DNA of 64,000 bases from an uncultured Candidatus Saccharibacteria bacterium (GTDB taxonomy: Bacteria > Patescibacteriota > UBA1384 > GWA2-35-9 > CAYZGQ01). The first letter of the stretch is position 1, and each line of letters starts with the position of its first letter. The stretch is taken from assembly GCA_964478135.1 (NCBI GenBank), contig CAYZGQ010000001.1, positions 3,365-67,364 on the forward strand, in the 5' to 3' direction. Positions 7,072 to 35,275 of the stretch are shown piece after piece. The notes under the pieces were generated by a model, which did no database searches, had not been told where the DNA came from, and saw nothing but the letters and a program-made list of their open reading frames with translations. The position numbers and the translations under genes are program-made.

Positions 7072-8022
7072 ATGGTAACTTTTTTAGATCTAATCTTGTT
7101 TGTCTGGGTGGCGTTTTGGCTTTTTCAGGGCTGGCGTAAAGGCCTGTTCAGAACCGGGGCTGAATTAATTGGCTTAATTTTTACGATTGTCCTAGCCCTT
7201 CAGCTCGCCCGTCCGTTCTCTGTCTTAATAGCCGGCGTGGTTGATTCCGGTCTGGCCTACCCGATCAGCTTCTTATCTTTATGGCTAATTTTTCATTTAA
7301 TATGGCTGTTAATTATTAGGCTGGTTGAAACAAGCCTACCTCAAAAAGTTCTTGGGTCGGAAGTCAATAAAGTAGCCGGCAGTCTATTGGCTGGATTATA
7401 TGGAGTAACCGCAATCGGTCTTAGTCTTGCTATTATTTTAGCTTTGCCGGTTAATAACCGATTTAAATCAGTCATAACAGATAGTGCCGTGGCCTCTCAA
7501 CTGATCGGTCGAACCGCTCGATTAACCCGATTTTTGGAAAGCCAGATCCAACGGTCAGTTGGTCAGACCCTTAGCTACTTTACAGTTCGGCCTCTCTCGC
7601 AAAATAGCTACGAGATTAAACTTAAGCCCGGCCCCTTAACCGTTGATCTGTCAAGTCAAAAAAAGATGCTCGAACTTGTTAATTTGGAACGGCGCAAGGC
7701 CGGGCAAAGGGATCTTGAGCTGGATCAAGATCTGACTAGATTAGCCCAAGGTCAGGCCCAAGACATGTGGCTTAGGCGCTATTTTGGCCACGTCAATCCA
7801 GATGGTCAAGATCCGTTTGCCCGGATGGATAAAGCAAAAATCAGTTATCAAAGCGCGGGCGAAAATCTAGCCCTAGCCCCAAGCGTCGAACTGGCTCACC
7901 TTGGCTTAATGGATTCCTCCGGTCATCGAGCAAACATTCTAAACCCAGGTTTTGGCAGGGTTGGCATAGGAGTGGTTGATGGAGGGTTTGGCAAGATATT
8001 TGTCCAGGAATTCACCAATTAA
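7072..8022 (+). CDS. CvpA-like membrane domain fused to a CAP/SCP (YkwD-like) extracellular domain
   Basis: The N-terminal 120 aa form 4 TM helices typical of CvpA. The C-terminal 130 aa match the CAP domain (LVNLERRKAG, GHxxNIL, GENLA). Confidence 0.6.
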   Translation: MVTFLDLILFVWVAFWLFQGWRKGLFRTGAELIGLIFTIVLALQLARPFSVLIAGVVDSGLAYPISFLSLWLIFHLIWLLIIRLVETSLPQKVLGSEVNKVAGSLLAGLYGVTAIGLSLAIILALPVNNRFKSVITDSAVASQLIGRTARLTRFLESQIQRSVGQTLSYFTVRPLSQNSYEIKLKPGPLTVDLSSQKKMLELVNLERRKAGQRDLELDQDLTRLAQGQAQDMWLRRYFGHVNPDGQDPFARMDKAKISYQSAGENLALAPSVELAHLGLMDSSGHRANILNPGFGRVGIGVVDGGFGKIFVQEFTN

Positions 8023-8927: not shown

Positions 8928-10043
8928 ATGGCTGGAATTATCTCAACTAAAAAAGCTAAAAAGCCGAAAGTCCTGGTTGCTCTTTCTGGGGGGGTTGATA
9001 GCGCCGTAGCCGCGGCTCTTCTGATTAAGCAAGATTATCAAGTCGAGGCCGCTTTTATGAAGAACTATACCCATCCGATTAAGACCCGGGTTGGATTGGC
9101 TTGCCCGTGGCAGGACGATTTGGCCTGCGCCCGCGAGGTGGCAAAACAGCTTGGTATTCGCCTCCATATTTTTAATTTTGAACTGGCGTACTATGAGAAA
9201 GTAGTCAGAAATTTTTTTAATGAGTACGCGGCCGGCAATACTCCTAACCCAGATGCTTTGTGTAACCGAGAAATAAAGTTTGGGCTTTTTTTAAAGCAAG
9301 CCCGCCGATTAGATTTTCAAAAAGTAGCGACCGGTCATTACGCTCAAGTCAAAACAAAAGTTTCTGATCCAACCCAAACGAGATTTTTAAGAGGGGTTGA
9401 TCTGAATAAAGATCAATCTTATTTTATGGCTTTAGTCAGACCGGATCAGCTTGAGCGGGTTATACTGCCAATTGGCGCTATGATTAAGCCGCGAGTCCGT
9501 CAGTTAGCGAGAGAGTTTGGCCTACCCAACGCCAACCGCAAGGACAGTCAGGGCATTTGTTTTATTGGTCCGGTTAAAGTCAATCAATTCCTTCGATCTT
9601 ATTTACCGGTCAAAAAAGGCCAAGTTATGACAACTGATAATCAGGTTGTGGGTCAACACGACGGGGCTTGGTTTTACACGATCGGTCAGCGTCACGGTCT
9701 CGGTCTTGGGGCTGACTTGCCTTACTATGTTGTTGGAAAGTCTGTCAAAAATAACACCCTGACTGTTAGTCTTGGTCCGGAAGATAGCGCCCTGTATTCA
9801 AGAGAGTTTCGGGTCAGATCATTGAACATAATCGCCAGAGCCAGCTTTGATCGAGGTTCGATATCTTGTCAAGTTCAAACCCGGTATCGTCAGCAACCGA
9901 TCGCCGGAACAGTCTTCCCTCAAGGCGCAAAGCAGGCCAAGGTAATTCTTAAAGAGCCGATTCGAGCCGTGACTCCAGGACAAGTAGCGGTATTTTACAC
10001 TGATAACGAGGTTTTGGCCGGAGGGACTATCGTGCTAAAATGA
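8928..10043 (+). CDS. mnmA: tRNA-specific 2-thiouridylase MnmA
   Basis: PP-loop SGGVDSAVAAALL plus the conserved MnmA central and C-terminal regions (DSQGICFIG). Confidence 0.88.
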   Translation: MAGIISTKKAKKPKVLVALSGGVDSAVAAALLIKQDYQVEAAFMKNYTHPIKTRVGLACPWQDDLACAREVAKQLGIRLHIFNFELAYYEKVVRNFFNEYAAGNTPNPDALCNREIKFGLFLKQARRLDFQKVATGHYAQVKTKVSDPTQTRFLRGVDLNKDQSYFMALVRPDQLERVILPIGAMIKPRVRQLAREFGLPNANRKDSQGICFIGPVKVNQFLRSYLPVKKGQVMTTDNQVVGQHDGAWFYTIGQRHGLGLGADLPYYVVGKSVKNNTLTVSLGPEDSALYSREFRVRSLNIIARASFDRGSISCQVQTRYRQQPIAGTVFPQGAKQAKVILKEPIRAVTPGQVAVFYTDNEVLAGGTIVLK

Positions 10044-11251
10044 AAACATCAAGGTTACTAATACTTATGATTCGTTTTAAAAGTCCTATTCTCGGGATTA
10101 TGATATTGGCTTTAGGTTGGTTGGGCGGATTTTTGCATGGCCACAGAAATCTTGTCTTTGAGCAATCGATTAAACCAACGATTGTTAACACAACTCTTCG
10201 AGAGCCAGATAAAGTTGATTTTTCACTCTTCTGGGACGCCTATAACGAAATTGCCCGAAAAGCGGTTGTTGAGCTGAATCCCAAACAGGCTCTTTATGGT
10301 TCAATTAGTGGTCTAGTCGGCACTTTAAAAGATCCTTTTTCTGTTTTTTTAAACCCCGATCAGTCCCGCCAATTTATAGATGATCTGGCGGGACAGTTCG
10401 ATGGGATCGGGGCCGAACTAGCCCTTAAGGATAATCAATTGATCGTGGTTGCCCCCCTGGAAGGTTCGCCAGCTCAAAAATCGGGCATCAAGGCCAAAGA
10501 TGTCATTGTCAAGATTGACGGGGTTGAGACTTCAACTCTCTCTTTCGGAGAGGCGATCGGCAAAATTAGAGGAGCAAAACGGAGCGTTGTAAAATTAACG
10601 ATTGCCAGGCAAGGCCAAGAGACCTTAATTGAATCGCCAGTCACCCGTGATACAATTCGGGTTAAGAGTGTTACGTCCCAAACCCGGGATCAAATCCTTG
10701 TGATTAAAGTCAGTCAATTTGGTCAAGACACATTAGGACTGGTTAAGTCATTGGCCAGCCAGGCCAAACGAGATCAGCCAAAAGGTATCGTCCTTGATTT
10801 AAGAAACAACCCAGGCGGTTTTCTGGATTCGGCGATTGATATTTCATCCCTTTTTTTAGATGGAGGAACGGTGGTTTTTGAGCAAGACAAGACTGGTCAA
10901 ACTAAGGAGTTTCAAACCACGCTTGAGCCGATGTTCGATCAACTGCCTATGGTGGTTATCATTAATGCCGGTTCTGCTTCAGCCAGCGAGATTGTCGCAG
11001 GAGCGCTTCAAGATAGGGGACGGTCTAAAATTGTGGGCGAACAATCTTTTGGCAAGGGTTCTGTTCAGGATTTGACCAAGCTTAGAGATGGTTCAACTTT
11101 GCGGATTACAACCGCAAGATGGTTAACACCTAACAAACGTCAGATTAACAGTCAAGGTATTCAACCCGACGAAAAGGTCCAAGATGATTCGGCGACCGAG
11201 GCTGACGAACAGCTTAACCGGGCCATAGAACTTTTATCAGTTAATAACTAA
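10040..11251 (+). CDS. ctpA: S41 carboxyl-terminal processing peptidase with PDZ domain
   Basis: A PDZ segment (IKAKDVIVKIDGV) followed by the S41 catalytic region (LRNNPGG...GSASASEIVAGALQD). N-terminal TM anchor. Confidence 0.8.
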   Translation: MKTSRLLILMIRFKSPILGIMILALGWLGGFLHGHRNLVFEQSIKPTIVNTTLREPDKVDFSLFWDAYNEIARKAVVELNPKQALYGSISGLVGTLKDPFSVFLNPDQSRQFIDDLAGQFDGIGAELALKDNQLIVVAPLEGSPAQKSGIKAKDVIVKIDGVETSTLSFGEAIGKIRGAKRSVVKLTIARQGQETLIESPVTRDTIRVKSVTSQTRDQILVIKVSQFGQDTLGLVKSLASQAKRDQPKGIVLDLRNNPGGFLDSAIDISSLFLDGGTVVFEQDKTGQTKEFQTTLEPMFDQLPMVVIINAGSASASEIVAGALQDRGRSKIVGEQSFGKGSVQDLTKLRDGSTLRITTARWLTPNKRQINSQGIQPDEKVQDDSATEADEQLNRAIELLSVNN

Positions 11252-11257
11252 ACTGAA

Positions 11258-11581
11258 ATGGTAAAACTCGTCTTAAACCAATCGGTGCCGCGTCTAGGTA
11301 ATAGAGGTGATATCGTGACAGTATCCCCAGGTTTCGCTCGCAACTACTTGATTGCCAGAAATATGGCTGTTATGCTAGAAACATCGACCGCTCGGGCGCT
11401 AGTGGCAGAGATTAGATCCAGGGCCCGTATTAACGTCAAGGCAAAAACTACTCAATCAAAACTTGGCCAAGCACCAGCCGGGTCTAAAAGTTCCAAGAGA
11501 ATTGCTAGAAAGATACTCAAATTAAACAAGCAAGAATCAAGAAAATTAGCTGAAAACGTTACAATTAAGGAATCTTTATAA
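11258..11581 (+). CDS. rplI: ribosomal protein bL9, N-terminal domain with divergent or truncated C-terminus
   Basis: MVKLVLNQSVPRLGNRGDIVTVSPGFARNYLIARNMAV matches the L9 N-domain (GDxVxVxxGYARNFL). Length is only 107 aa against about 148 aa for canonical L9. The C-terminal half is Lys/Ser-rich and non-canonical. Confidence 0.5.
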   Translation: MVKLVLNQSVPRLGNRGDIVTVSPGFARNYLIARNMAVMLETSTARALVAEIRSRARINVKAKTTQSKLGQAPAGSKSSKRIARKILKLNKQESRKLAENVTIKESL

Positions 11582-11628: not shown

Positions 11629-12576
11629 ATGCCCGAGTTTGATCTTTCCCCGCCACCGCCCCAAGGACAAAATAATCCCAACGCGCCAGGCCAAGGATCA
11701 GTTAGTGATCTTAGAAACGCTCCAGTCTCTCCAGTCGCTGGGACAGCGCCTTTTAAACCTGACGCTGGGGCGATCGGTTCAGTGCCCAGCCATGAGCCAA
11801 ACCCCGGCCAAACGGTTGGTCCTAACCCCAATCAACCTGTGGTTTCGTCGGTTTTGGGTCCACCGGCGCCGGTTCAGCCCGATCAAGCTGGATCGGTCGC
11901 ACCTCCGGATAAGCCTTCTCTAGGTCCAGAACTACCAGCCGCTCAATCAGAATTACCCCCGGTAAAATCAGGGCGATCGGGTATGTGGAAGATTTTTATC
12001 GCCCTGGGCTTGGCGGTAGTGCTGACGGCTATTGTCTACGCTTTTGTTAGTCTACCATCACTGCGCGGCTTAATCGGCCTTGATAGCCCAGACAATCTAG
12101 TGCTAGATGATCAAGATCAAGTCAGCGATCTTGATGATCTGGGTTTTTCCGAGTTCGGGGATGATTTTTCAGACACGAGTCTCAATAACGGTGTGGTTGG
12201 AGATTTATCTCAAGGGAGGGTACCGGTTGGTCAACAAAATAACACTTCCTCGAACCTCGATAACCAGAGAAAGAATGATTTGTCATTGATTCAAAGTTAT
12301 CTCGAGGCTTACTTTACAGACAAGGGCGCCTATCCTGTCGCTGGATCATTTATTAAAACGAGCGATCCTTCTTCGGTTTTGCAGGCCGCGCTGTTACCGA
12401 GCTACGCCAGCCAATTACCAGACGATCCTAACTCGGGCCAAGGATGGTGGTATGGCTACCGTTCAGTTGATGGAGCTTCTTATGAACTGACCGCCCGGCT
12501 CGAAAACGAGATTGATCCGCAAGGGGTTAAAGATATTAGCGGTTTAACGCTTTACAAACTGAATAATCCCCGATAA
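11629..12576 (+). CDS. bitopic membrane protein with Pro-rich cytoplasmic N-terminus and pseudopilin (GspG/type IV pilin)-like C-terminal domain
   Basis: Strong SD (aaggaggaattATG). One TM helix (IFIALGLAVVLTAIVYAF). The C-terminal segment QRKNDLSLIQSYLEAYFTDKGAYP...LPDDPNSGQGWWYGY...YELTARLEN follows the GspG-like pattern (DLxxIxxALxxYxxDNGxYP...PxDPWGxxYxY...YxLxSxGxDG). There is no N-terminal prepilin cleavage motif. Confidence 0.45.
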   Translation: MPEFDLSPPPPQGQNNPNAPGQGSVSDLRNAPVSPVAGTAPFKPDAGAIGSVPSHEPNPGQTVGPNPNQPVVSSVLGPPAPVQPDQAGSVAPPDKPSLGPELPAAQSELPPVKSGRSGMWKIFIALGLAVVLTAIVYAFVSLPSLRGLIGLDSPDNLVLDDQDQVSDLDDLGFSEFGDDFSDTSLNNGVVGDLSQGRVPVGQQNNTSSNLDNQRKNDLSLIQSYLEAYFTDKGAYPVAGSFIKTSDPSSVLQAALLPSYASQLPDDPNSGQGWWYGYRSVDGASYELTARLENEIDPQGVKDISGLTLYKLNNPR

Positions 12577-12643
12577 ATCTGGAACGATCGTTCTTCCTGA
12601 ACCAGTGGTTTAGTGAAACTATTCGTACTATAATTAGACTGTT

Positions 12644-13207
12644 ATGCCACGGAGGGGACTTAATTATCTTCTTTTTAGTTTAGTTGTTGTTTCGGCGATT
12701 TTGATGATCCTTTTTTGGCGCAGGAGTCCCAAACAGCCAGTTGACCGGCTGGCCCAGGAGCAGAAAGCGGCCGTTCTCTTTACCAGCGCCAAGGAGGCCC
12801 AAACATCGAGAGACTTTAAAACCGCGGTTGCCCGCTATCAGGAAGCGATCTCGTTCAACCCGAATGAGCCGGTTTATTTTGAGTCGCTCGGAGTCGCCCA
12901 GTATAACATTAAGGATTACCGGGGGGCGATTGCCAGTTTTGAGCAGGCGCTCAAATTGACGCCCGGGAGCGCCTTTTTATGGAACGGTTTGGCCAACGCC
13001 GCTCGCGACAGCGGCGATCGCCAGAGAGCCTTTGAGAGCTACCGCAAGGCGATCGAGCTTGACCCGGGTTTTTTGGTCGGCTACACCAACTTGGCTTACC
13101 TTTACCGAGACCAAGGCGCGGTTGACCGGGCTAAGGAGGTAATCGCCGAAGGTCTGGCCAAAAATCCCGACTCGGTTGAGTTGAAAGACATTTTAAAAAA
13201 CCTATGA
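12644..13207 (+). CDS. TPR-repeat protein with N-terminal membrane anchor
   Basis: At least four 34-aa TPR-like units (AVARYQEAISFNP..., AIASFEQALKLTP..., AFESYRKAIELDP...). The stop overlaps the start of the next gene (ATGA). Confidence 0.65.
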   Translation: MPRRGLNYLLFSLVVVSAILMILFWRRSPKQPVDRLAQEQKAAVLFTSAKEAQTSRDFKTAVARYQEAISFNPNEPVYFESLGVAQYNIKDYRGAIASFEQALKLTPGSAFLWNGLANAARDSGDRQRAFESYRKAIELDPGFLVGYTNLAYLYRDQGAVDRAKEVIAEGLAKNPDSVELKDILKNL

Positions 13208-16200
13208 AACGTCATTTGATTAAAACTCTCGAACGTTTGCTTCATCTGCGGCGCCGGACGACAGGCAGAGTTCACGCCCATCTGGTTGGTCGATGGGGCT
13301 GGTATCGAATCTGGCACGAATTTCCTTTTCACCGCCAGGTTCATTTAACCTCTCTTATTTTGATAGTTTTTGGCACGCTCGGTTTGGTCTTGACAGCCAC
13401 TCGGCCGGCCTTGGCAACTGACTACACCGTCTCGACCAACTCGACTTGGTGCGACTCGGGCGATCTGCCGGCCTCAATCGGCAATCTGACAATTAATTCC
13501 GGCGTTACCCTGACACTCGGCGGGACATCTGGCAACGCGGTCAACGGCCAGAATACTGGCGGGACCGACGCCTGTTCTTATGAGGCGCCGAGTTCGGGTG
13601 TCAGTTGGACAATGACCGGGACAGGGACCTTGACGGTTAACGGCACAATCAAAGTTCAAAGCGAGATTTCCGGCTCAACTGGCGGCACAGTCAAAATAGA
13701 TTTTGCGACAGTGACAGTTGCTTCAGGAGGTAAAATTCATGCTGACAGCACGGGGTTTCTCTCATGTAACACATCAGGTTGTACTGGAGGCGGAGCAGGT
13801 GGAGGACAGTGGACCTCTGGCTATTACGGTGGCGGTGGGGGGCATGGCGGGAAAGGCGGCACCGGTCATATTACTAATGGAAAAGGAGGTTCGGTAAATG
13901 GTAATTCATTTGCTCCTGTGACACTGGGTTCGGGCGGAGCGGGAGGTTCTCAAGGGGCAGGAGGTGGAGCAGTTTATATTAATTCAAGTGGCACCGTTAC
14001 AGTTACAGGAACGGTATCCGCAAATGGTGAGGTAAGCAATAGCAGTGTTGGCGGAGGGGGATCTGGAGGGAGCATTTACATTACCGCCGCTACTGTTGCC
14101 GGCGCAGGGACTGTTACAACGACTGGGGGGGATGGTGGTAGCGCATCCGCTGGTGCGGGCGGAGGCGGTAGAGTTGATATTCGCTATTCGACAGCCAATA
14201 CCTTTAGCGTTGCCAACGCAACAGCCGCAACTGGTTCTACTGGCGTAGCTGGTGATGCTGGAACAATTATTTTTATTGATTCAACCAACAAGGATGGGTA
14301 TATCTACAAAACTTTTACATTCAGTGCGGCGCAAGGAATAGATACAAACTTAGCGACAACTACTGACGGAATATTTAATTTTCGCGATCTTACTTTAGGC
14401 GACGCTTCCAACACTGCAACTGTGTTAGCAATATCAACCGGAACAAGCCCCAATGGTAAAGGACCAACCCTCAATCTAACTGGAAACTTTACTTTAGCCA
14501 GTGGCTCAACCTTTTCAGCCAATGGCACGGGTTATTCCGGTGGTTCAACAACTGGCGTTGGGCCTGGGGGTGGAACCTGGGCTAGCGGGTTTTACGGTGG
14601 TGGAGGAGGGTATGGCGGAGCTGGCGCCACGGGGAGCTCCAGCTATGGTGTTGGTGGCCCTACTTATGGTTCAGCTTCAGCGCCAATTGATCTTGGTTCT
14701 GAAGGTGGAGGCGATCTAGCATCCTCATCGGGTGATGGCGGCGGCGCTATTAGAATCAATGCTACTTCAGGCACTGTTACTATCAATGGCACGATTTCAG
14801 CCAATGGTTCTGCTGGAGGCAGTAGTGTATCTGCCGGCGGTTCAGGCGGCAGTATCTATATTACAGCAGCGACGACCGCTGGCACTGGTTCAATTACAGC
14901 TAATGGCGGCGCTGGAGGTAGTGGCAGCGCTGGCGGAGGGGGCGGCGGTCGGTTGGGTCTTTATTATGTGACTGCCCAAAATCACACCGGTAGCAGGACG
15001 GCCAGCCTCGGGAGCGGCGGGACTGGCGGCTCGGCCGGCACGGTCACTCTCAAATCAATCCCAGCCGCTCCGACCCTTTCCTCTCCGGCCGACGCCGACG
15101 GGGTTTCAACCACGCCGGCTTTGCAGTTTTCAACCACTAATGCCGGCACGAATGAAAATGTTCAGTACTACATCCAGATTGACGACAATTCTGATTTTTC
15201 CTCGGTCACTCAAACGATTGACCAAACCGCCTCTCAAACCGGTTGGACCGGACAAGATCGGGCTAACGGCACGAGCGCGACCGCCGGATCAAGTTTTTAC
15301 GCCTCCTCGACCAGCGCCACTTTTACGGTCCAGACCGCTCTGACCACCAACACCACCTATTACTGGCGCGTTCGAGCCATTGCCTCGGGTGGATCGAATA
15401 TCTATGGCAGTTACTCGAGTTCTCGTTCGTTCGTGACCAACGACCCGCCCCAAGTCTCGATCACCAACACCCCGAGCCAGGATTCTTCCGGCAACATCGC
15501 GATCAACTACAATATCTGTGATACCAACCACTCGACGCTGACCATGCGGGTCCAGTTTACGACCAACAACTCGATCTACACGACCGTCGCCGCCGGGGCG
15601 CTCTCGGGCACCAACAGCTTTGGGTCGGTCACCGGCGTCTCGAGTAATTGCGCCTCGCCCAGCGCCAAGACAGTCACCTTTGACGTCTCGGCCGATTCTA
15701 ATGTCCCGGCCTCCTACTACTCGGCCGCCTCGGGAAACTGGAAAGTTCGCATCCAAGCCGACGATGGCATCGCCAACGGCCAGATCAACTCGACCGCCTC
15801 GTCCGCCTTTGAGCTGGACAACGTCTCGCCCGCTACCCCGACCCATTCTTCGCCGGCCAACGCCAGCTACACCAACGACACCACCCCGGATTTGACCGGA
15901 TCGGCCTATTCCGACGACACTACTCAAACCAATCTTCGGATTCAGATTGACGATAATTCGGATTTTAGTTCGGTCGCTGTTGACTACACCAAAGGCGCTT
16001 CCGGCGTGACCTTTACGGTCGGTCAGGCGGTCGGTTCGGGGACATACACCGCCGGATCGGCCGGTCAAACTTTAGCCGACGGGACATACTACTTTCGGCT
16101 GCGCTACACCGATTCAAAAGGCAATCTATCGAGTTATTCGACCGGCACCTCGTTTACCGTTGACGCGACTTCGCCGGTCGCGCCTAGCTCGTTCAATATT

Positions 16201-19200
16201 TTTGACACTTCAACCGGCTCTAATAATTCCCATCAGGTTGAATGGAACGCCGCTACCGAGGCAAACTTCAAAAATTATCTTGTCCTGCGTTCAACCGATG
16301 ACGTCAGTTATTCGACGCTCTCAACCATTACCGATTCAACCATCCGCAACTATCGAGACTCCAGCCTTGACTCGGCTACGACTTACTACTATAAGATTCG
16401 GACGACCGACCAGGCTGACACGGCGACCGATACGGCCGCCGTGTCGAACAAACCCGGCGCCCCGACCCTCTCGGCGATTTCTTCCGGCACGCCCGGGACC
16501 AACTCGGCCACCATTACTTGGACTTCAAGCGAAAACGGCAGTTCAGAAGTTCGACTCGGGACCTCAAGCGGCAGTTATGGTCTTGGCGTTCGGGGCAACA
16601 ATGCCGACTCGGCTACCTCCCATTCCCAGTTGGTTTCAAATCTCAATCCCAATACGACCTATTACTACATCGTTAGGTCTCGAGACGGCAGTGGACTGGC
16701 GACCACCTCGGCCGAGAATAGTTTTACCACCGCGGCCAAAGTTTCAGCCAGCTCTCTTGCCTCGAGCGTCAGTCACACGACCGCCACCCTGACTTGGAAC
16801 ACCACTGGCACCAACACCTCGAGTGTTGTTGACTGGGGAACCTCAAGCGGCAGCTACAGCCGATCAGACGGCGACGCCGACGCTTCAGAGACGACCCACT
16901 CGGTTACCTTGAAAGGACTAGCTCCGGGCACGACCTATTACTGGCGGGTCAACTCGACCGATTCAAACCTAAATGCCATTACCTCGACCGAGCAGAACTT
17001 GACCACGACCGCCAGACCGGCGATTTCATCAGTCTCATCCGGCACGCCCGGTCAAACCAGCGCCGCGATCACCTTTTCGACCGACCGGTCGGTCAAGGAT
17101 GTTTTTGTTGATTACATTGCTTCCTCAACAAGCGGCGCCTGCGCCAGTGTCTCGAATGCCAAAACGGTTTCGGGCGGGATCGCCGCCAGCGCCGGCACGT
17201 CCCACAGCGTCTCTTTAACCGGTCTTTCGGCCGGCACGACCCATCGGTTCAGAGTTCGAGTGATCGAGCTTGACGCTTCAGCTGAGAGCGCCAATCAACA
17301 GGTTCAAACGATTGATGACAACTCCGGCGCCTGCTACAGCTTTACCAGCGCGACCGACTCGACCGCTCCGACTATTTCCAATCTCGCTTCCGGCAACATC
17401 ACCAACACCTCGGCGGTTATCACTTGGGAGACCGACGAGCCGGCGACCGGCCTTGTTTCGGTCAGCTCTTCAAGCGGTTTTGGTTTTGCCAGCGGCAGCC
17501 AGACAACCGCCAACCCCTCGGCCAATAATCAGAAACAGACCGCCGTTATTACCGGGTTGACCAGAAACACAACCTACTATTTCTTGGCCCGGTCGGTTGA
17601 CGGTTCAAATAATGCCACGACTGCTCCTGAAGCTTCATTCACGACGACCGGCGACGCGACCGGTCCGGTTATTTCCGGCTTGACCGCAAGCTCGATCACG
17701 ACCGACGGCGCCCTCATAACCTGGACGACCGACGAGCCGGCCACGACTCAAGTCAACTATGGCCAAACGACCAATCTGGGCTCGTCCTCGGCCAAAGATG
17801 AAAAGCTTGATCGCAATCACCGAGTCACGCTATCCGGTCTTTCGGGCGCCACGCTCTATTACTTCCAGGTGGTTTCCCAAGACGCCAACGCTAACGAGAC
17901 CAAGAGCCCTGTTTCCTCGACCACCACCTTGACCACCCAGACCGTGCCGAGTGTCTCGAGCATCTCGCTGGGAGAGATTAGTTCAAAAACAGCGACTGTC
18001 AGCTGGAGCTCCAATCTCGCTGGCGATTCGTTCGTCGATTATGGTCTGACTTCGAGTTATGGTTCGCGTCAAGGTCGAGCTGATGACAGCCAAACCGCAC
18101 ACTCAATCACTCTCTCTGGCTTGAAGTCCTCGACCACTTATTACTTTCGAGTCAGAACAAAAGATTCAAACGGCAACGAAGTCATCTCGTCTGGTTCAAG
18201 CTTTACAACCGAGAGCTCGGAAGACGATGTCTCGTCTGACAAATTGGCCCCGGTCATCAGCGGCAATGAAGCCAGCCTCTCTGGTCTAACCGATACTCGA
18301 GCGACAATCAGCTGGACAACCAACGAGGAGTCAACCTCGAGGGTGGATTATGGTCTTGACCAATCTCTCAATCAGTCCCAAAGCGACGATACTTTTGTGA
18401 CCAAGCATGAATTGAAGTTGACCGGCCTTGAAGCGGGCAAGAAGTATCGTTTTCAAGTCTCGAGTCTCGATCGAAACAAGAACCGCGGCAAAGGGAGCGT
18501 TCAAGAGTTTACGACCGCCAAGTCTTCGGCCATTTCCGACGCTTCGCTCGTCACTCAAGAGCTCGATAAACTGATCCTTTCGGTTCAAACGACCGAGGCG
18601 ACCAAGGTGAGGGCTCTCTTTGGCGCCGGTTTGGACAGACTTGACTCCGAAGTTTCAAGTCTGGGCGCCGAGACCTCGAGCCACGCCTTTGTGATCGAGA
18701 ATCTCACTCCGGGGACGGCCTATTATTTTCAGTTTTCGGTTAAGGACAAGTTTGGTCAGGAAACGACCACACCGAGTTTTTGGAAGTTTGAAACTCGAGC
18801 CTTGCCGAAAATTACGGCCGTTAATGTAACCGACCAACAGGCGACCCAGGCGGTCTTGTTGGTTTCAGTCAACACTAAAGCCCAAGTGATCGCGGCTTAC
18901 ACCGATCTTAATAGCAAAAGCCGGAGCGTTGGCTCTGGAGCGCTGGCCGAAAAGCACGAAATTAGGCTGGACGGTCTGAAACCAGAAGCAACCATTCCAG
19001 TTGCCTTGACCGCGATTGACGCATCTGGCAATCAGGCCGTTTTTCAAACCAATGTTTCGACCACCGGCGATCGGTCCGCGCCCGAATTTCAAAAAATCGA
19101 GACCGAGATTATCGGCGGGAGCGGCAACAAAGGGGCGACGATCATCGTCTCGGCGGTGCTTAGCGAGCTGGCGACACTTAATGGTCAGGCCGGTCTGGCC

Positions 19201-19461
19201 GCCAGCAATCAGACGCCGATAACCACGCCCAAAAACGCCGCCGCTAAGGAACAGACATTGGTTTTTCGGAATCTGCCTTCTGGTCAGTTTGTTAAGTTTA
19301 AGCTGATAGCCGAAGATCCGGCAGGCAATGTCACAGAGTCGCCCGACATCACCACCTTTACCCCGGAGCCGAGTAAAAGCGCTCTGACCCTTATCACGAC
19401 TCAACTTGAAACTATCTTCGGCGGTCTGGGAAAAGGCCTTCAGTCTTTATTTGGCAAGTAA
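13204..19461 (+). CDS. giant (2085 aa) surface protein: N-terminal anchor/signal, duplicated Gly-rich beta-rich module, array of FN3-like domains
   Basis: N-terminal basic stretch plus a hydrophobic helix. Two copies of a roughly 150-aa Gly-rich module (GGGxGGxGG...GGSGGSIYITAATxAG). At least 10 repeats ending in the FN3 signature (WxT...TTYYWRV, TTYYYKIR, TTYYYIVRS, TTYYFRVRTKD, TAYYFQFSVKD). Confidence 0.8.
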   Translation: MKRHLIKTLERLLHLRRRTTGRVHAHLVGRWGWYRIWHEFPFHRQVHLTSLILIVFGTLGLVLTATRPALATDYTVSTNSTWCDSGDLPASIGNLTINSGVTLTLGGTSGNAVNGQNTGGTDACSYEAPSSGVSWTMTGTGTLTVNGTIKVQSEISGSTGGTVKIDFATVTVASGGKIHADSTGFLSCNTSGCTGGGAGGGQWTSGYYGGGGGHGGKGGTGHITNGKGGSVNGNSFAPVTLGSGGAGGSQGAGGGAVYINSSGTVTVTGTVSANGEVSNSSVGGGGSGGSIYITAATVAGAGTVTTTGGDGGSASAGAGGGGRVDIRYSTANTFSVANATAATGSTGVAGDAGTIIFIDSTNKDGYIYKTFTFSAAQGIDTNLATTTDGIFNFRDLTLGDASNTATVLAISTGTSPNGKGPTLNLTGNFTLASGSTFSANGTGYSGGSTTGVGPGGGTWASGFYGGGGGYGGAGATGSSSYGVGGPTYGSASAPIDLGSEGGGDLASSSGDGGGAIRINATSGTVTINGTISANGSAGGSSVSAGGSGGSIYITAATTAGTGSITANGGAGGSGSAGGGGGGRLGLYYVTAQNHTGSRTASLGSGGTGGSAGTVTLKSIPAAPTLSSPADADGVSTTPALQFSTTNAGTNENVQYYIQIDDNSDFSSVTQTIDQTASQTGWTGQDRANGTSATAGSSFYASSTSATFTVQTALTTNTTYYWRVRAIASGGSNIYGSYSSSRSFVTNDPPQVSITNTPSQDSSGNIAINYNICDTNHSTLTMRVQFTTNNSIYTTVAAGALSGTNSFGSVTGVSSNCASPSAKTVTFDVSADSNVPASYYSAASGNWKVRIQADDGIANGQINSTASSAFELDNVSPATPTHSSPANASYTNDTTPDLTGSAYSDDTTQTNLRIQIDDNSDFSSVAVDYTKGASGVTFTVGQAVGSGTYTAGSAGQTLADGTYYFRLRYTDSKGNLSSYSTGTSFTVDATSPVAPSSFNIFDTSTGSNNSHQVEWNAATEANFKNYLVLRSTDDVSYSTLSTITDSTIRNYRDSSLDSATTYYYKIRTTDQADTATDTAAVSNKPGAPTLSAISSGTPGTNSATITWTSSENGSSEVRLGTSSGSYGLGVRGNNADSATSHSQLVSNLNPNTTYYYIVRSRDGSGLATTSAENSFTTAAKVSASSLASSVSHTTATLTWNTTGTNTSSVVDWGTSSGSYSRSDGDADASETTHSVTLKGLAPGTTYYWRVNSTDSNLNAITSTEQNLTTTARPAISSVSSGTPGQTSAAITFSTDRSVKDVFVDYIASSTSGACASVSNAKTVSGGIAASAGTSHSVSLTGLSAGTTHRFRVRVIELDASAESANQQVQTIDDNSGACYSFTSATDSTAPTISNLASGNITNTSAVITWETDEPATGLVSVSSSSGFGFASGSQTTANPSANNQKQTAVITGLTRNTTYYFLARSVDGSNNATTAPEASFTTTGDATGPVISGLTASSITTDGALITWTTDEPATTQVNYGQTTNLGSSSAKDEKLDRNHRVTLSGLSGATLYYFQVVSQDANANETKSPVSSTTTLTTQTVPSVSSISLGEISSKTATVSWSSNLAGDSFVDYGLTSSYGSRQGRADDSQTAHSITLSGLKSSTTYYFRVRTKDSNGNEVISSGSSFTTESSEDDVSSDKLAPVISGNEASLSGLTDTRATISWTTNEESTSRVDYGLDQSLNQSQSDDTFVTKHELKLTGLEAGKKYRFQVSSLDRNKNRGKGSVQEFTTAKSSAISDASLVTQELDKLILSVQTTEATKVRALFGAGLDRLDSEVSSLGAETSSHAFVIENLTPGTAYYFQFSVKDKFGQETTTPSFWKFETRALPKITAVNVTDQQATQAVLLVSVNTKAQVIAAYTDLNSKSRSVGSGALAEKHEIRLDGLKPEATIPVALTAIDASGNQAVFQTNVSTTGDRSAPEFQKIETEIIGGSGNKGATIIVSAVLSELATLNGQAGLAASNQTPITTPKNAAAKEQTLVFRNLPSGQFVKFKLIAEDPAGNVTESPDITTFTPEPSKSALTLITTQLETIFGGLGKGLQSLFGK

Positions 19462-19483
19462 GTCCTTAAATTAAAGACAAGCG

Positions 19484-20188
19484 ATGCCAGCCAGCAACGT
19501 AATTGAACTTAGATCGGTCACGAAAATCTTTGACAAGGGCAAGCCGAACGAGTTCTATGCCCTCCGAGATGTCAGTCTCGAAGTCAAGGCCGGAGAATAC
19601 TTAATTCTTTTTGGGCCGTCCGGTTCGGGCAAATCAACCCTTTTGAACATTGTGGCCGGTCTTGATCCCTACGAGAAAGGCGAGGTCTTGATCCGAGGCG
19701 AGCGGCTCTCGAAAAAAAGTCAGAACGAGCTGGCTCGCCACCGGCGGGAAAAGGTCGGTATGGTCTTTCAGCAGTTTAACCTTTTGAAAGGGATGTCTGT
19801 TCTTGACAATGTTGCTTTGCCCGATTTGTTTGCCGGTAAATCTTACAAGGTCCGGCGCAATCGGGCCAAAGAACTCTTGAGTCGGTTGGGGTTGAGTAAA
19901 ATGGCTTATCGCAAGCCCAACGAACTCTCGGGCGGACAACAGCAGAAAGTCGCGATCGCCCGGGCCCTGATTCACAACCCTTGGATTTTGCTGGTTGACG
20001 AGCCGACCGGCAATCTGGACTCCAAGTCGGCCGAAGAGGTGATGAATCTACTCAAAGACCTTAACCAGAAGGGCAAGCGGACGATCATGCTGATTACTCA
20101 TAATCCGGATTATCTTGACTATTCCAATCGGGTGGTTTACATGCGCGATGGGAAAATCGAGCGAGAAAAGAGGTCAAGATCACGATGA
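19484..20188 (+). CDS. ABC transporter ATP-binding protein (MacB/LolD/FtsE-like)
   Basis: Walker [10 protein letters not shown], signature [15 protein letters not shown], Walker [13 protein letters not shown]-loop ITHN. Confidence 0.88.
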
Positions 20189-21381
20189 GGCCGGTCGATT
20201 TTTTGAGATTAAGCCTTCAAAATATTTGGGGCAATCGTTTAAGATCAAGCCTGACTGTTTTGGGAGTTAGTATTGGCATTGGCTCAATCGTTTTTTTGGT
20301 CGGCTTAGGCTTTGGCCTGCAACGTCTGACAATTAACCGGATAATCTCTTCGGCCGCCTTGACCACCTTGGATGTCACGACCACCAAGTCGGCCCTTCTT
20401 AAGCTCGATCAAGAAGCGACCAGCCGGTTTGCCAACATCACCGGAGTTGAGGCGGTTTCGCCGATTTTCCGACTGCCTGGTCAGAGTCAGCGGGACGGGA
20501 CGGCGACCGAGACTCTGATTCAGGGGGTCGAGCCCTCGTTTTTTGACCTTGAGGGGATGAAGCTTGTAGCCGGAAGAATCCCGACAGACTTTTTAAAGCC
20601 GGTTTTGGTCGTCAGCGCGAGCACGGTCAAGCTTCTTGGTTTTGAAAGTCCGCAGGCGGCGCTCGATCAAAAACTTGAGATCCGGGCGGCAATTGTCGGC
20701 TCGGAGGACGGTGAGAATAATGGTCTGGTGGCTCAAAAAAATTATAAATTGCCAGTCGCCGGCGTGGTCGAAAACGAATCCTCGGTCGTTTATCTGCCGA
20801 TTGAGCTGGTGCGATCGGAACAGTTGATCAATTACGATCAGGTCAAGGTTAAGGCGCGCTCGATCGTGGAAATAGACCAGATCAAACAGGGAATCAGCGA
20901 CCTTGGGTTTCAGGTGACATCGGTTGCCGATTTGGTTGAGGAGGTCAATCGGATCTTTCGCTATTTCCAGATCATTATGGGCGGTTTTGGTCTAATCGCT
21001 CTCCTTGTCGCTTCGATCGGAATGTTTAATACGATGACAATCGCCCTGCTTGAGAGAACTCGGGACATAGGAGTTATGAAGGCGATCGGGGCGAGAAACT
21101 TCGACATTAAAGTCTTATTTGTCGCCGAGTCAACTATTCTAGCCGTTCTTGGCGGCTCTCTCGGAGTCTTTTTGGCTTGGTTCTTGAGCCTTTTGGTCAA
21201 CGGTTTCGTCAGCCAGATCGCCCGAGCCGGCGGCGTCGGCCCGATTGATCTCTTTTACTTCAACCCGATCTTTGTTTTGTTGGTGGTTTTGTTTTCCCTT
21301 GTTGTCGGTTTGCTAACCGGCATCTATCCGGCGCTTCGGGCCGCCAGACTCAATCCCTTAACCGCGCTAAGATACGAATAG
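20185..21381 (+). CDS. ABC transporter permease, MacB-like periplasmic domain plus FtsX 4-TM domain
   Basis: An N-terminal TM, a large extracytoplasmic domain, then C-terminal FtsX-like helices (GMFNTMTIALLERTRDIGVMKAIGA). The start overlaps the ATPase stop. Confidence 0.8.
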   Translation: MRPVDFLRLSLQNIWGNRLRSSLTVLGVSIGIGSIVFLVGLGFGLQRLTINRIISSAALTTLDVTTTKSALLKLDQEATSRFANITGVEAVSPIFRLPGQSQRDGTATETLIQGVEPSFFDLEGMKLVAGRIPTDFLKPVLVVSASTVKLLGFESPQAALDQKLEIRAAIVGSEDGENNGLVAQKNYKLPVAGVVENESSVVYLPIELVRSEQLINYDQVKVKARSIVEIDQIKQGISDLGFQVTSVADLVEEVNRIFRYFQIIMGGFGLIALLVASIGMFNTMTIALLERTRDIGVMKAIGARNFDIKVLFVAESTILAVLGGSLGVFLAWFLSLLVNGFVSQIARAGGVGPIDLFYFNPIFVLLVVLFSLVVGLLTGIYPALRAARLNPLTALRYE

Positions 21382-23956: not shown

Positions 23957-25444
23957 ATGGCAGTACCAAAAACAATCGCCCTGGCTTACCGGGCGCTTCA
24001 AAAAAGAGACATCAGCTCGGTCGAACTGACGCGAGCTGTTCTCGATCAGATTAGGCAGTTTGATCCGCAAATCAAGGCCTTTCTTTATTTTGATCAAGAT
24101 CAGGCTATAACACAGGCTAGGGCGAGTGACAGTCGCAGACGCTCCGGTCAATCAAAAGGCATTTTGGACGGAATTCCGATCGCGCTCAAGGACGTTTTGG
24201 TCACAACTGACATGCCCACGACCGCCGCGTCCAAGATTCTGGAAGGCTTTATGTCAGCCTACGACGCAACAGTGGTTGCGAAACTTAGGTCCCAAGGCGC
24301 GGTACTAATCGGCAAGACGAACATGGACGAGTTTGCCATGGGTTCTTCGACCGAGAATTCGGCCTACGGGCCGACAAAAAATCCATGGGATCTAGGGCGC
24401 GTGCCGGGTGGATCATCCGGAGGCAGTGCGGCCGCGCTGGCCGCTGGAATGTGTCTGGCCGCGCTTGGTTCGGATACAGGAGGTTCAATTCGCCAGCCAG
24501 CCAGTTTTTGCGGCGTGGTCGGCTTTAAGCCGAGCTATGGCGCTGTTTCGCGCTACGGTTTAATCGCTATGTCGTCGAGTCTCGATCAGATCGGACCGAT
24601 GACCCAAACAGTAGCAGATGCTAAGATATTGTTTGAAGCTATCAAGGGTCAGGATCGGTCAGACGCAACGAGCGTTCAAATTAAAAGACCAACTAGGAGC
24701 AACCGTCAGGTTAAGGCAATAGGTCTTGCCAAAGAGTACTTTGGTCAGGGACTAGATTCACAGGTGAAACCATTGGTTGTCAGAGCGATTGAACTGCTTG
24801 CTCGATCAACCGGGGCAGATATTGTTGAGATATCTTTACCGAACGCCCGCTTTAGCGTCTCGGTCTACTACATTTTAATGTCGAGCGAAGTGGCCAGTAA
24901 TCTGGCGCGCTACGATGGAGTTAAGTACGGCTTGCAGATTCAAGGCGACACTTTGCTCGAGAGTTACCTTGAAAGCCGTTCCAAGGGTTTTGGTCAAGAG
25001 GCTAAGCGCCGGATTATGCTGGGTACTTTTTCTTCGTCAGCCGGCTATAGCGATCAGTATTACCAGAAAGCCCAGCTCGCGCGGGCCAAAATTAAGCAGG
25101 ACTTTGATCAGGCGTTCGAAAAGGTTGATTTAATCGCCGCGCCAGTCGCTCCAACTACCGCGTTCAAGCTAGGTGAAAAGGTTGACCAGCCTCTTCAAAT
25201 GTACCTTTCAGATATTTACACTATTCCAACCAATCTAGCTGGTTTGCCCGGTATTTCAATTCCTTGCGGTTTGGTTGAGGGTCTGCCTGTTGGTCTCCAG
25301 TTGATGGCTAATCGATTTGAGGACGAGTTTTTACTCGATATTGGTCAAAAATACGACCAGGCGCGCGGTCAGTTACCCGGTCCACCATATACTAGCGGTA
25401 CTAATGCCAAGGGAAGACAGATCAAAGTGAGATTAAAGTTATGA
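23957..25444 (+). CDS. gatA: Asp/Glu-tRNA amidotransferase subunit A (amidase signature family)
   Basis: Amidase signature GGSSGGSAAALAAG and catalytic Ser-cisSer-Lys context (IALKD). 495 aa. Confidence 0.92.
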   Translation: MAVPKTIALAYRALQKRDISSVELTRAVLDQIRQFDPQIKAFLYFDQDQAITQARASDSRRRSGQSKGILDGIPIALKDVLVTTDMPTTAASKILEGFMSAYDATVVAKLRSQGAVLIGKTNMDEFAMGSSTENSAYGPTKNPWDLGRVPGGSSGGSAAALAAGMCLAALGSDTGGSIRQPASFCGVVGFKPSYGAVSRYGLIAMSSSLDQIGPMTQTVADAKILFEAIKGQDRSDATSVQIKRPTRSNRQVKAIGLAKEYFGQGLDSQVKPLVVRAIELLARSTGADIVEISLPNARFSVSVYYILMSSEVASNLARYDGVKYGLQIQGDTLLESYLESRSKGFGQEAKRRIMLGTFSSSAGYSDQYYQKAQLARAKIKQDFDQAFEKVDLIAAPVAPTTAFKLGEKVDQPLQMYLSDIYTIPTNLAGLPGISIPCGLVEGLPVGLQLMANRFEDEFLLDIGQKYDQARGQLPGPPYTSGTNAKGRQIKVRLKL

Positions 25445-25893
25445 AAAAGCGACTGAACAATCAGCCTTCCTATCAAGAGAAAGTCTTTGACGCCTTGATT
25501 GGTGGAGTAGGCAAGATCGTCGGTTTAGTACGAATTAGCCCTAAATCGAGCAGACCGATCAAGTCAATTGATCGTTTGGAGATCACCACTCGCTGGCGTC
25601 AGATCGAGCAGAGTCATCGTTTAGGAGGTTCATCTGGGCTCAAGCAGGCGGTGATTGAAGCCGATAATCTGCTCGATAAGGCATTGAGAATGAAAGTTTC
25701 AGGCCAAACTATGGGGGAACGTTTAATTAACGCTCAAAGCTTAATAAGTTCTCAAGCCTATCAAGCCGCCTGGGAAGGACATAAACTGCGCAACCGTATT
25801 GTTCACCAAGACCAGAGCGAGGTGTTGAGTTTTGAGACAGAACAGGCGCTTAAGGGTTTCAAACAAGCTCTTCTCGAATTGGGAGGATTATGA
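25441..25893 (+). CDS. hypothetical protein with HEPN-like Rx4H motif, inserted between gatA and gatB
   Basis: 150 aa. Both ends overlap their neighbours by 4 nt (ATGA). The C-terminal helix region contains KLRNRIVHQ, i.e. R-x4-H, as in HEPN domains. Confidence 0.5.
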   Translation: MKKRLNNQPSYQEKVFDALIGGVGKIVGLVRISPKSSRPIKSIDRLEITTRWRQIEQSHRLGGSSGLKQAVIEADNLLDKALRMKVSGQTMGERLINAQSLISSQAYQAAWEGHKLRNRIVHQDQSEVLSFETEQALKGFKQALLELGGL

Positions 25894-34597: not shown

Positions 34598-35275
34598 CTA
34601 GCTGGCTGGCGAGGGGCTTGGGCTAGCGGCTGATTGGCCAGTTTGACGGGCGAACACAATGTAACGTTTGACGAGCGTGCCCGGAGGCCAAGAGGTTTGG
34701 AGAGTTATGGTTTTGTCTTTCGGATCTTTGGGCGTTGGGTCTAGAACCGAGAAGTCGTCAGAGGCGACCACCTTCTTGCCAAAGACCTCGTATTGGTAGG
34801 CGACATTTTTGTAATAGACGATGAACCGATCGCCTTTGTCGAGTTTGTCGATACTTTTGAAGATTTCTTTAAGTTCTGGTTTACCCGGGAAGTTTTTAAA
34901 GTAGCTCGAGTGACCGAAGATGTACATATTTCCCAGTTGGTCCGGTTTCTGGCTACCTTTTAGATGTGCGACACCGAGCTGGGAGGTGATTTTTTGATAG
35001 ACCGGTTCGTTAGCCCCGTCAACATCCGCGATAATTGGAACCCGGATGCTGATTTTTTCGATCTCAAGACCAAATTCTTTGATCTCGACTGGTTCTGGCA
35101 GGGAACTTTGATTAAGCCCTGAAGGAGAGGCAGAGGGTTGAACGATTGATACGTTCAAGCCTGACTTTACCAAAGCAAGCGTTCCGGCAACAACCATAGC
35201 GCTTGCTAGTCCAATACCAAGAATAACTAGCTTTTTTTGAGTAGTCACTTGTGGCAAGACAGATTGTGGGTTCAC
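34598..35275 (-). CDS. sortase-fold protein (class E-like) with Ser at the catalytic Cys position
   Basis: N-terminal TM anchor. Catalytic His context (NMYIFGHSSYF). TLQTSWPPGTLVKRYIVFA aligns with the sortase TLxTC...R active-site strand, but it is encoded as acc-tct-tgg (Ser), which I verified by reverse-complementing 34650-34700. The GTG start overlaps the TGA stop of the upstream LPKTG gene. Confidence 0.65.
   Translation of the reverse strand: MNPQSVLPQVTTQKKLVILGIGLASAMVVAGTLALVKSGLNVSIVQPSASPSGLNQSSLPEPVEIKEFGLEIEKISIRVPIIADVDGANEPVYQKITSQLGVAHLKGSQKPDQLGNMYIFGHSSYFKNFPGKPELKEIFKSIDKLDKGDRFIVYYKNVAYQYEVFGKKVVASDDFSVLDPTPKDPKDKTITLQTSWPPGTLVKRYIVFARQTGQSAASPSPSPAS

Follow-up and report, generated by a model that had tools for sequence, protein, structure and literature searches.

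What does a transporter of the MacB type do beside the gene of a very large surface protein? This question is raised by a locus of an uncultured Candidatus Saccharibacteria bacterium, in a stretch of DNA, here called the window, that comprises 64,000 nt of the forward strand of contig CAYZGQ010000001.1 (positions 3,365-67,364; assembly GCA_964478135.1). The locus encodes a protein of 2085 aa (the giant) with a Gly-rich head and a stalk of fibronectin type III (FN3) domains, preceded by a tetratricopeptide repeat (TPR) protein and followed by an ATP-binding cassette (ABC) ATPase and its permease (the ABC pair). The genes at 12644-21381 form a four-gene module that is typical of Patescibacteria. 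An initial annotation, which added a fifth gene upstream, had linked the giant to the ABC pair and suggested a dedicated assembly or export system for a fibre. The linkage itself was borne out, and the element that appears to underlie it is a conserved C-terminal tail of the giant, which the annotation had missed. As a whole, the locus is best explained, and rather likely correctly so, by a Sec-exported adhesin and a dedicated type VII ABC mechanotransducer that would engage the tail of this adhesin.

A shared C-terminal tail on giant proteins

Complete giants have unrelated N-terminal halves and one common end, which follows the last FN3 domain. The pattern of this end consists of a final FN3 strand, ..S..YTILTP, then xxxESvFQxIxKNFExTFGW and about six mostly basic residues, with D, N, S, P, I, E, F and W as near-invariant positions. 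The heads seen on such proteins include a Gly-rich region modelled as a beta-helix (on the giants of the window and of Berkelbacteria), Fib_succ_major combined with discoidin, 13 LVIVD repeats and RCC1 repeats. When a tail profile of 41 positions was searched against 1.84 billion cluster representatives, 714 representatives matched at E<=1e-3 and 189 at E<=1e-10; in the top 150 matches listed, the tail is always located at the extreme C-terminus, and the proteins have a median length of 1767 aa and a maximum of 6321 aa. Neither Pfam (E<=10) nor NCBIfam yielded a model of the tail. Across the family, this segment is amphipathic, with a hydrophobic moment (muH) of 0.42-0.58 and a terminal net charge of about +1.7; its conserved hydrophobic positions (I, F, F, W) recur at helical spacing, and it is too polar for a transmembrane (TM) helix.

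The tail of the window giant, FTPEPSKSALTLITTQLETIFGG, is treated here as a divergent but genuine member of this family, because a profile, pairwise statistics and full-length orthology agree in placing it there. A hidden Markov model (HMM) of 46 columns, which spans the end of the last FN3 domain and the tail and was built with the window sequence left out, recovers it at E 4.7e-6 (20.5 domain bits) and finds no other match below E=1 in the six-frame translation of the window. Pairwise scores of the window tail reach 36-45, in comparison to a shuffle mean of 17 +/- 3.5, and are equalled by 0-2 of 2000 shuffles. In addition, the BLAST alignment of the window giant with its Berkelbacteria orthologue (locus L010) extends to the C-terminus. 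From the family pattern, T-P, S, I, E and F are kept; muH is 0.45, and the 19-residue hydropathy (KD19) of 0.82 lies below the TM threshold of 1.6, so that the segment is not a TM helix.

At its other end, the giant starts with a long basic N-region and a single hydrophobic helix (aa 48-66), followed by ...RPALA/TDYTVSTNSTW, in which the slash marks the putative cleavage site. The L010 orthologue has a short classical signal peptide that ends VFA/TDYTISSNTTW and the same mature start, so that the mature N-terminus TDYT(V/I)S.N.TW is conserved between the two proteins. Other family members show an AxA motif and then the conserved ATY.F.QT.WSGG. Residues 1-71 of the giant thus probably constitute a Sec signal peptide that includes a site for signal peptidase I. 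The N-terminal helix had initially been taken for the anchor of the giant; given the AxA motif and the conserved mature N-terminus, it looks like a cleavable signal and not like a permanent anchor. In many tail-bearing giants (window 13204-13416, L023, L040, P0152 and others), the N-region is long and basic and contains a semi-conserved W..P[FW][KH]..[WH] just before the signal helix, and a common longer, multi-hydrophobic N-terminal domain occurs in P0133, P0137, P0142 and P0147.

Between signal and tail, the giant is composed of the head and the stalk. Glycine accounts for 25% of residues 70-640. The tandem duplication in this region is real, with a repeat unit of about 185 aa in place of the roughly 150 aa first proposed; the two copies are 54.5% identical over 189 columns. 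Structure prediction, which had been recommended as a check, models the head as a beta-helix. The likeness to TpsA and autotransporter adhesins with a beta-helix (EtpA, HMW1, FHA) is confined to the fold: no sequence match to two-partner secretion (TPS) or autotransporter families was found in Pfam or NCBIfam, Foldseek returned nothing significant and the giant, unlike those adhesins, has neither a TpsB partner nor a beta-barrel. The nearest homologues of the head (P0001, P0007), among matches that were all shorter than about twice the query, have no ABC or TPR neighbours, and the Gly-rich head is therefore regarded as a mobile module and not as the link to the transporter. Its repeat, of about 190 aa (..GGGSGGSI.I.A..L.G.G.I.ANGG......GGGGGGRI..), occurs widely (matches P0001-P0120) and is not covered by a Pfam model; in 2-3 tandem copies, fused to varied C-terminal domains, it is found in proteins attributed to Verrucomicrobiota, Planctomycetota, Bdellovibrio, Lentisphaerae, Armatimonadota and the candidate phyla radiation (CPR). 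In the stalk, Pfam detects Pur_ac_phosph_N (9.1e-62, 7 stretches) and fn3 (2.1e-30), and an iterative HMM places 13 FN3 domains between residues 662 and 2051, in agreement with the earlier estimate of at least 10. The earlier statement that the giant has no LPXTG motif is also correct.

The ABC pair and its neighbourhood in Patescibacteria

The ATPase (ABC_tran in Pfam, 1.6e-37) belongs to the MacB/LolD/FtsE clade and its motifs are intact, namely Walker A, the signature LSGGQ, Walker B (ILLVDE) and the H-loop (TH); among solved chains, MJ0796, Spr0694 and MacB come closest. The permease consists of TM1, an extracytoplasmic MacB_PCD domain of about 220 aa (aa 21-239; 1.8e-20, 74.6 bits, cutoff 27) and three further TM helices in an FtsX domain (aa 268-391; 5.9e-19, 68.7 bits, cutoff 25.5), with hydrophobic segments at aa 23-41, 263-281, 318-336 and 362-380. 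Its closest solved chains are YtrF 9o9x (7.3e-32, C-terminal TM region only) and MacB 5lil (1.6e-25, full length), besides Spr0695 5xu1, LolF and LolE/C. This complete permease architecture, together with a cognate ATPase that retains all motifs, identifies the pair as a predicted type VII ABC transporter of the MacB superfamily. Transporters of this type are not known to have a transmembrane substrate path; their ligands, which are extracytoplasmic or lie in the outer leaflet, are acted on by mechanotransmission, as known for MacB, LolCDE and FtsEX; the MacB fold reportedly lacks a transmembrane substrate channel.

More specific identities were considered and rejected. The best NCBIfam matches of the ATPase, to the MacB nucleotide-binding domain (215 bits), LolD (211.2, cutoff 307.75) and FtsE (202, cutoff 264.85), all remain below the equivalog cutoffs, and the pair as such is below the MacB cutoff too. 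Orthology to FtsEX, which the initial annotation had named as one finding that would contradict its reading, is not apparent from the permease either, with 45.8 bits for FtsX_actino (cutoff 250), 43.6 for FtsX_Gpos (225) and 33.6 for FtsX_Gneg (255). A Lol identity was dropped in view of 79.1 bits for lolCE (cutoff 362.45), the LolD score given above and the lack of a lipobox Cys in the giant. For a MacAB-TolC system, a periplasmic adaptor and an outer-membrane component were looked for; no HlyD/membrane fusion protein (MFP) or OEP family is present among the Pfam matches of the open reading frames (ORFs) at 5480-34581, and none was seen next to the pair in those related loci that were inspected. 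In L027:8297-9607, L107:10207-11550, L112:10190-11533 and most Parcubacteria-type loci, the ATPase has an extra C-terminal helical extension of about 200 aa, which contains the motif GG[AL]G[LW][DN]K[RK]xA twice and has no Pfam family; this extension is absent from the ATPases of the window and of Berkelbacteria.

A permease-seeded search of 185,579 species, with one genome for each, gave about 500 relatives in Patescibacteria genomes at 36-43% identity. The best 80 loci, which cover the same range of permease identity and were analysed with 10 kb flanks and simple longest-ORF calling, are all Patescibacteria-type. The window accordingly derives from an ultrasmall bacterium of the CPR, and Berkelbacteria are the nearest group sampled. 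In many of them, an FN3-rich ORF of 700-3260 aa is found directly beside the ABC pair, upstream or downstream. The tail occurs at the extreme C-terminus of an ORF, 0-12 aa from the stop codon, in 35 of the 80 loci, which contain no match to the tail profile elsewhere. Such a tail giant is encoded on the strand of the ABC pair in 34 of these 35 loci, mostly at a distance of less than 350 bp, and is situated upstream in 28 loci and downstream in 8 (L078 has one on each side). Of the 43 loci in which 3 kb or more of flanking sequence is available on each side, 23 possess a tail giant; five tail-negative loci (L013, L030, L056, L072, L073) have an adjoining giant that is cut by the contig end.

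Five gene orders were seen: TPR-giant-ABC-permease, giant-TPR-ABC-permease, giant-ABC-permease-TPR, ABC-permease-TPR-giant and ABC-permease-giant-TPR. The first of these, which is the order in the window and whose conservation had been proposed as a check, is kept in Berkelbacteria (L008, L010), where a third locus (L009) keeps giant-ABC-permease; the giants of all three can be aligned with that of the window from end to end, at 33-36% identity. Adjacency that survives reshuffling across classes is a classical signature of functional coupling, and the giant and the ABC pair are probably coupled in this way, through the tail. Of the dedicated system that had been suggested, the recurrent, permuted neighbourhood thus stands; export across the membrane by the ABC pair is unlikely because the giant has its own Sec-type signal, and a function in assembly or export stays inferential. 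Approached from the tail, a scan of 241 million metagenome records with six close tail sequences, biased to Parcubacteria-type tails, led to ABC genes immediately downstream in 15 of 32 loci and in 5 of the 6 with full context. Most of the remaining loci begin inside the giant and do not cover its upstream side. The context of P0181 reads giant-TPR-ABC-MacB permease, and the contig of P0156 is too short to show neighbours.

A contig of 957,791 bp carries two separate giant-ABC-permease modules, one with a head of Fib_succ_major and F5/8C and the other with 13 LVIVD repeats. The level of divergence between the two is similar for the stalk (51%), the ATPase (50%) and the permease (59%), which indicates that the module was duplicated as a block. 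Tails and permease TM regions are conserved between the paralogues (58-82% in 40-residue windows), whereas identity in the extracytoplasmic domain has fallen to 30-40%, which hints at a membrane-proximal contact between tail and permease.

Proposed coupling and its alternatives

In the proposed model, the giant would be a host- or surface-binding fibre, with the inferred role of an adhesin, and would be composed of the Sec-type signal, the variable distal head, the rod of 13 FN3 domains and the amphipathic C-terminal tail of about 30 residues; for these episymbionts, binding by way of the variable heads (lectin-like domains, propellers, beta-helices) is plausible. The giant would cross the membrane via Sec, where its signal would be cleaved, and the tail, as the last part to emerge, would remain at the outer face of the membrane. 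There it would be engaged by the adjoining MacB-type ABC complex with its permease dimer, which would act as a non-covalent membrane base of the fibre. ATP-driven mechanotransmission from the ATPase would switch the permease between gripping and expelling the tail, and depending on the direction of this step the fibre would be displayed, or else handed off or released. The TPR protein may serve as an accessory scaffold or chaperone for the tail step in some lineages. For the form that tail coupling would take, a stoichiometric base or actuator, comparable to FtsEX, is favoured, tentatively and as a somewhat doubtful choice in its own right; a Lol-like extraction or hand-off is nearly as likely.

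In the latter case, the complex would be a releasing enzyme and not a base: it would take the tail laterally from the outer leaflet and expel it with ATP, such that the fibre would be released to the wall, the S-layer or the medium. An amphipathic tail with a short basic end would suit this activity, MacB, LolF and LolC/E are among the closest solved relatives, and tail conservation parallels the conserved TM regions and not the variable extracytoplasmic domain. Nevertheless, the substrates of a catalytic sorter like Lol or sortase are usually numerous and scattered, and here mostly one giant accompanies one ABC pair and has been duplicated with it. The invariant polar residues of the tail (E, Q, N) suggest a specific protein interface over lipid partitioning, and no LolA-like acceptor was seen. 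It is because of the one-to-one, co-duplicated pairing and these polar residues that the base or actuator is preferred, while catalytic release is considered rather unlikely. A further possibility is that the tails associate with each other and bundle the C-termini of fibres into dimers or trimers, unrelated to the transporter. A short amphipathic helix with conserved hydrophobic residues at helical spacing would be suited to this, and AlphaFold2 (AF2) would be expected to model a monomer with low confidence, as it does, if the segment acquired its fold solely within a complex; yet self-association leaves the order-independent ABC adjacency and the co-duplication unexplained and is quite improbable as an alternative, although it could coexist with engagement of the tail by the ABC complex. 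Export in the manner of type I secretion systems (T1SS), with the tail as a secretion signal and the ABC pair as the translocator of the giant, is suggested by the resemblance to RTX and LapA adhesins, which are likewise giant and repetitive and combine a C-terminal signal with an adjoining ABC gene. It is highly improbable in view of the N-terminal Sec-type signals with AxA sites in the giant and its relatives, of a permease with the 4-TM MacB fold instead of a 6-TM exporter of the HlyB type, and of Pfam matches of the neighbouring ORFs that include no MFP or outer-membrane factor, in a cell that is probably monoderm.

Several observations weigh against the proposed coupling, and some of them would be accounted for if giant and ABC pair did not interact directly. 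The pair would then be a general housekeeping or efflux transporter for a peptide, lipid or antibiotic, and adjacency would reflect co-expression or inherited synteny. A tail giant is missing within 10 kb of about half of the orthologous ABC pairs, for example in Moranbacteria-type loci with leuS downstream, and the pair is duplicated without giants in L018 and L035. Conversely, some tail giants have no neighbouring pair: on L124 (Logan ERR7850084, 62,891 bp; the context of P0134), two tandem FN3-rich giants of 2011 and 2153 aa, the latter with the tail, have no ABC pair within 10 kb, and the tail giant of L106 is likewise without one nearby. The pair itself scores as generically MacB/LolD/FtsE-like, under every equivalog cutoff. 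The link between giant and ABC pair is drawn wholly from gene neighbourhood, and the tail HMM was first built from ABC-adjacent giants, so that independence comes from the reverse searches only, with the stated bias of the tail-seeded scan; longest-ORF calling is a caveat for the related loci. In the window tail, W is replaced by G, and a tail HMM that covers the helix alone, built with the window sequence left out, does not match the giant significantly (E 1.4). AF2 assigns the tail low confidence (pLDDT about 48, partly helical) beside a confident last FN3 domain. Finally, several family members have long, multi-hydrophobic N-termini, for which N-terminal anchoring is possible.

Independence of giant and ABC pair is nonetheless regarded as improbable, since adjacency is kept through five gene orders and divergent classes and the module was duplicated as a block in one genome. 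Chance adjacency would be on the order of 0.2% in a genome of about 1000 genes, as opposed to the 35 of 80 loci observed. The window provides an internal contrast, as it also holds a predicted classical sortase system that is separate from the tail/ABC module. A sortase gene at 34598-35275 (-) overlaps the end of the gene of a 1108-aa CarboxypepD_reg protein (35272-38598, -) that terminates in LPKTG, a TM helix and RRR; a protein of 1205 aa (41576-45193, +) likewise ends with LPKTG, a TM helix and basic residues. The giant, which ends ...TFTPEPSKSALTLITTQLETIFGGLGKGLQSLFGK and has the low KD19 of 0.82 (<1.6), carries no LPXTG sorting signal of this kind. Among the four window proteins of more than 1000 aa, the tail is present only on the giant that adjoins the ABC pair, and the LPKTG proteins go with the sortase.

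Known systems, module limits and neighbouring genes

In the proposed system, two known kinds are combined: C-terminal sorting signals that have a cognate machine, and type VII ABC mechanotransducers that act with a protein partner. It resembles LolCDE in the MacB-type fold (four TM helices and a large extracytoplasmic domain), in the separate LolD-like ATPase and, as proposed here, in acting from the membrane on a Sec-exported protein by means of a terminal, membrane-associated handle. This handle would be a C-terminal amphipathic peptide, in contrast to the N-terminal triacyl group in Lol; moreover, there is a single permease gene, whose product is probably a homodimer, neither LolA nor LolB was seen, and there is usually a single substrate gene for each ABC pair, next to it. 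FtsEX is a type VII ABC transporter that is not known to transport anything, but holds an extracytoplasmic partner through a helical element and regulates it by mechanotransmission. The holding of the giant by its tail and the ATP-driven regulation, as proposed, would be similar to FtsEX with PcsB, CwlO, EnvC or RipC, of which the interaction between FtsEX and CwlO is described (PMC8060467). Unlike FtsX with its small loop domain, the permease has a full MacB_PCD of about 220 aa; the partner is a 2085-aa adhesin of beta-helix and FN3 only, with no hydrolase family, and there is no cell-division gene context.

Short signals at the extreme C-terminus of unrelated surface proteins, and a layout of head, stalk and signal, are also features of sortase/LPXTG, exosortase/PEP-CTERM and rhombosortase/GlyGly-CTERM systems. 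Sorting signals of this kind are paired with cognate membrane machines and are recognisable by comparative genomics (PMC1569441, PMC3237569). In contrast to these systems, the machine here would be an ABC ATPase complex, where those systems use a transpeptidase or protease, the amphipathic signal is not composed of a motif, a TM helix and a basic cluster, and pairing is mostly one to one with adjacent genes. By sequence, the closest solved homologues (MacB, YtrF, Spr0695) belong to MacAB-TolC and to the Gram-positive MacB-like systems, a group that comprises Spr0693-0695, YknXYZ and YtrEF. These systems differ from the locus described here, as no MFP/adaptor or TolC was found beside the pair and the partner is a giant adhesin in place of a small toxin or antibiotic; for YtrEF, a mode of action by protein-protein contacts and not by transport has been proposed (PMC8060467).

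Large surface proteins with adhesion domains have been noted repeatedly in Patescibacteria, without explanation (PMC13059738, PMC11809585). No description of the tail, or of a linkage between giant adhesins and MacB-type genes in this phylum, was found in the literature searched. In the very large phylum of the Patescibacteria (CPR), cultivated members are found attached to other microbes, and little beyond type IV pili has, to our knowledge, been described for this attachment. The tail profile provides a signature for one class of surface fibres across the phylum (714 representatives so far). That a type VII ABC complex is the cognate machine for the tail of hundreds of giant adhesins with interchangeable heads, and thus an ATP-powered fibre base within a sorting and anchoring system of the Patescibacteria, is a broader proposal that falls a little short of likely. 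If true, it may represent a new job for the MacB/FtsX/Lol superfamily, exerted on the peptide tail of a giant adhesin in a single-membrane bacterium, and a new entry in the short list of bacterial C-terminal sorting signals. It would also be a counterpart of sortase/LPXTG that works by mechanotransmission instead of transpeptidation, with fibres held, actuated or released on demand, and would offer a concrete target for the genetics of fibre display and release in tractable relatives.

The features of the locus are listed in Table 1. All five co-directional ORFs lie where the initial annotation had placed them, and the junctions it described are equally correct: overlaps of 4 nt (ATGA) join the TPR gene to the giant gene and the ATPase gene to the permease gene, and 22 nt separate the stop codon of the giant from the ATG of the ATPase.

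Table 1. Genes of the locus and parts of the giant, in window positions
Feature	Positions	Strand	Basis
315-aa bitopic protein gene	11629-12576	+	ORF
TPR protein gene, 187 aa	12644-13207	+	ORF, Pfam TPR families
Giant gene, 2085 aa	13204-19461	+	ORF; Pfam fn3 and Pur_ac_phosph_N, from about aa 660 on only
N-region and probable signal peptide, giant aa 1-71	13204-13416	+	Hydrophobic helix, ALA/TD site
Gly-rich head, giant aa 72-640	13417-15123	+	Repeats, beta-helix model
Gly-rich repeat 1, giant aa 171-355	13714-14268	+	Self-alignment
Gly-rich repeat 2, giant aa 430-614	14491-15045	+	Self-alignment
FN3 stalk, giant aa 662-2051	15187-19356	+	Pfam, iterative HMM
C-terminal amphipathic tail FTPEPSKSALTLITTQLETIFGGLGKGLQSLFGK, giant aa 2052-2085	19357-19458	+	46-column HMM, pairwise scores
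ABC ATPase gene, 234 aa	19484-20188	+	ORF, Pfam ABC_tran
Permease gene, 398 aa	20185-21381	+	ORF, Pfam MacB_PCD and FtsX

The TPR protein, as an accessory member, is a frequent third partner in the module. It contains a TM helix (aa 6-24) and 3-4 TPR repeats (Pfam TPR_2 at 7.5e-23), and at least 18 related loci encode similar TM+TPR proteins of 190-240 aa next to the giant or the ABC pair. The Lys/Arg-rich N-termini that precede the TM helix in its homologues imply that the TPR domain faces outward. The five-gene module initially described holds for four of its genes; the 315-aa gene is left out because no homologue was found at E<=1e-5 in any of 112 related loci and because a gap of 67 nt with a TATAAT box separates it from the TPR gene. 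The 315-aa protein has a Pro-rich N-terminus, a TM helix (aa 122-140) and a C-terminal domain with a weak resemblance to the type II secretion protein family T2SSG, for which the match to PF08334 is sub-threshold (E 0.062, 13.8 bits, cutoff 21, over 76 residues). It has no Pfam or NCBIfam family at default thresholds and no meaningful sequence match in the PDB. The label of a pseudopilin-like protein is therefore weak, also because a prepilin cleavage motif is missing: 120 Pro-rich residues precede the TM helix and SGRSGMWKIFIALGL has no Glu at +5.

The module is flanked by housekeeping genes, namely those for an S41 protease, a short rplI, ligA and gatCAB. The S41 C-terminal-processing protease (PDZ and Peptidase_S41; 10040-11251, +), two genes upstream, was considered as a processor of the tail and dropped, as it recurs in only 1 of the 80 loci (L086, 5 kb away). 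No terminator was found in the intergenic gaps, and the counts of this promoter and terminator scan, close to those of shuffled sequence (26 vs 17 +/- 5), are uninformative; an Rfam scan of the window at gathering thresholds gave zero matches. The GC content rises to 0.55-0.57 at window positions 14001-18000 and 30001-32000, which belong to two giant genes, from a background of about 0.48, and the GC skew is reversed in the first of these genes (-0.15 at 16-18 kb). Both features are attributed to coding sequence rich in Gly, Ala, Thr and Ser and not to foreign origin. The second of these genes (27446-32896, +; local GC 0.56) encodes 1816 aa with neither the tail nor LPXTG, and its only Pfam match is an N-terminal HTH_17 domain of the DNA-binding type, present twice in tandem (GYSAGH.NYLAR.GK), an odd architecture for a giant protein. 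The rplI gene (11258-11581, +) encodes a ribosomal protein L9 of only 107 aa, in which the N-terminal L9 domain alone is detected. Between gatA and gatB, with an overlap of 4 nt on either side, an ORF of 150 aa without family is inserted (25441-25893, +), and the same insertion is found in L002. At 7072-8022 (+), a CvpA (colicin V production) membrane domain is fused to a CAP/SCP domain. Outside the window, the contig of L124 carries a Cas12a (Cpf1) gene about 2.4 kb upstream.

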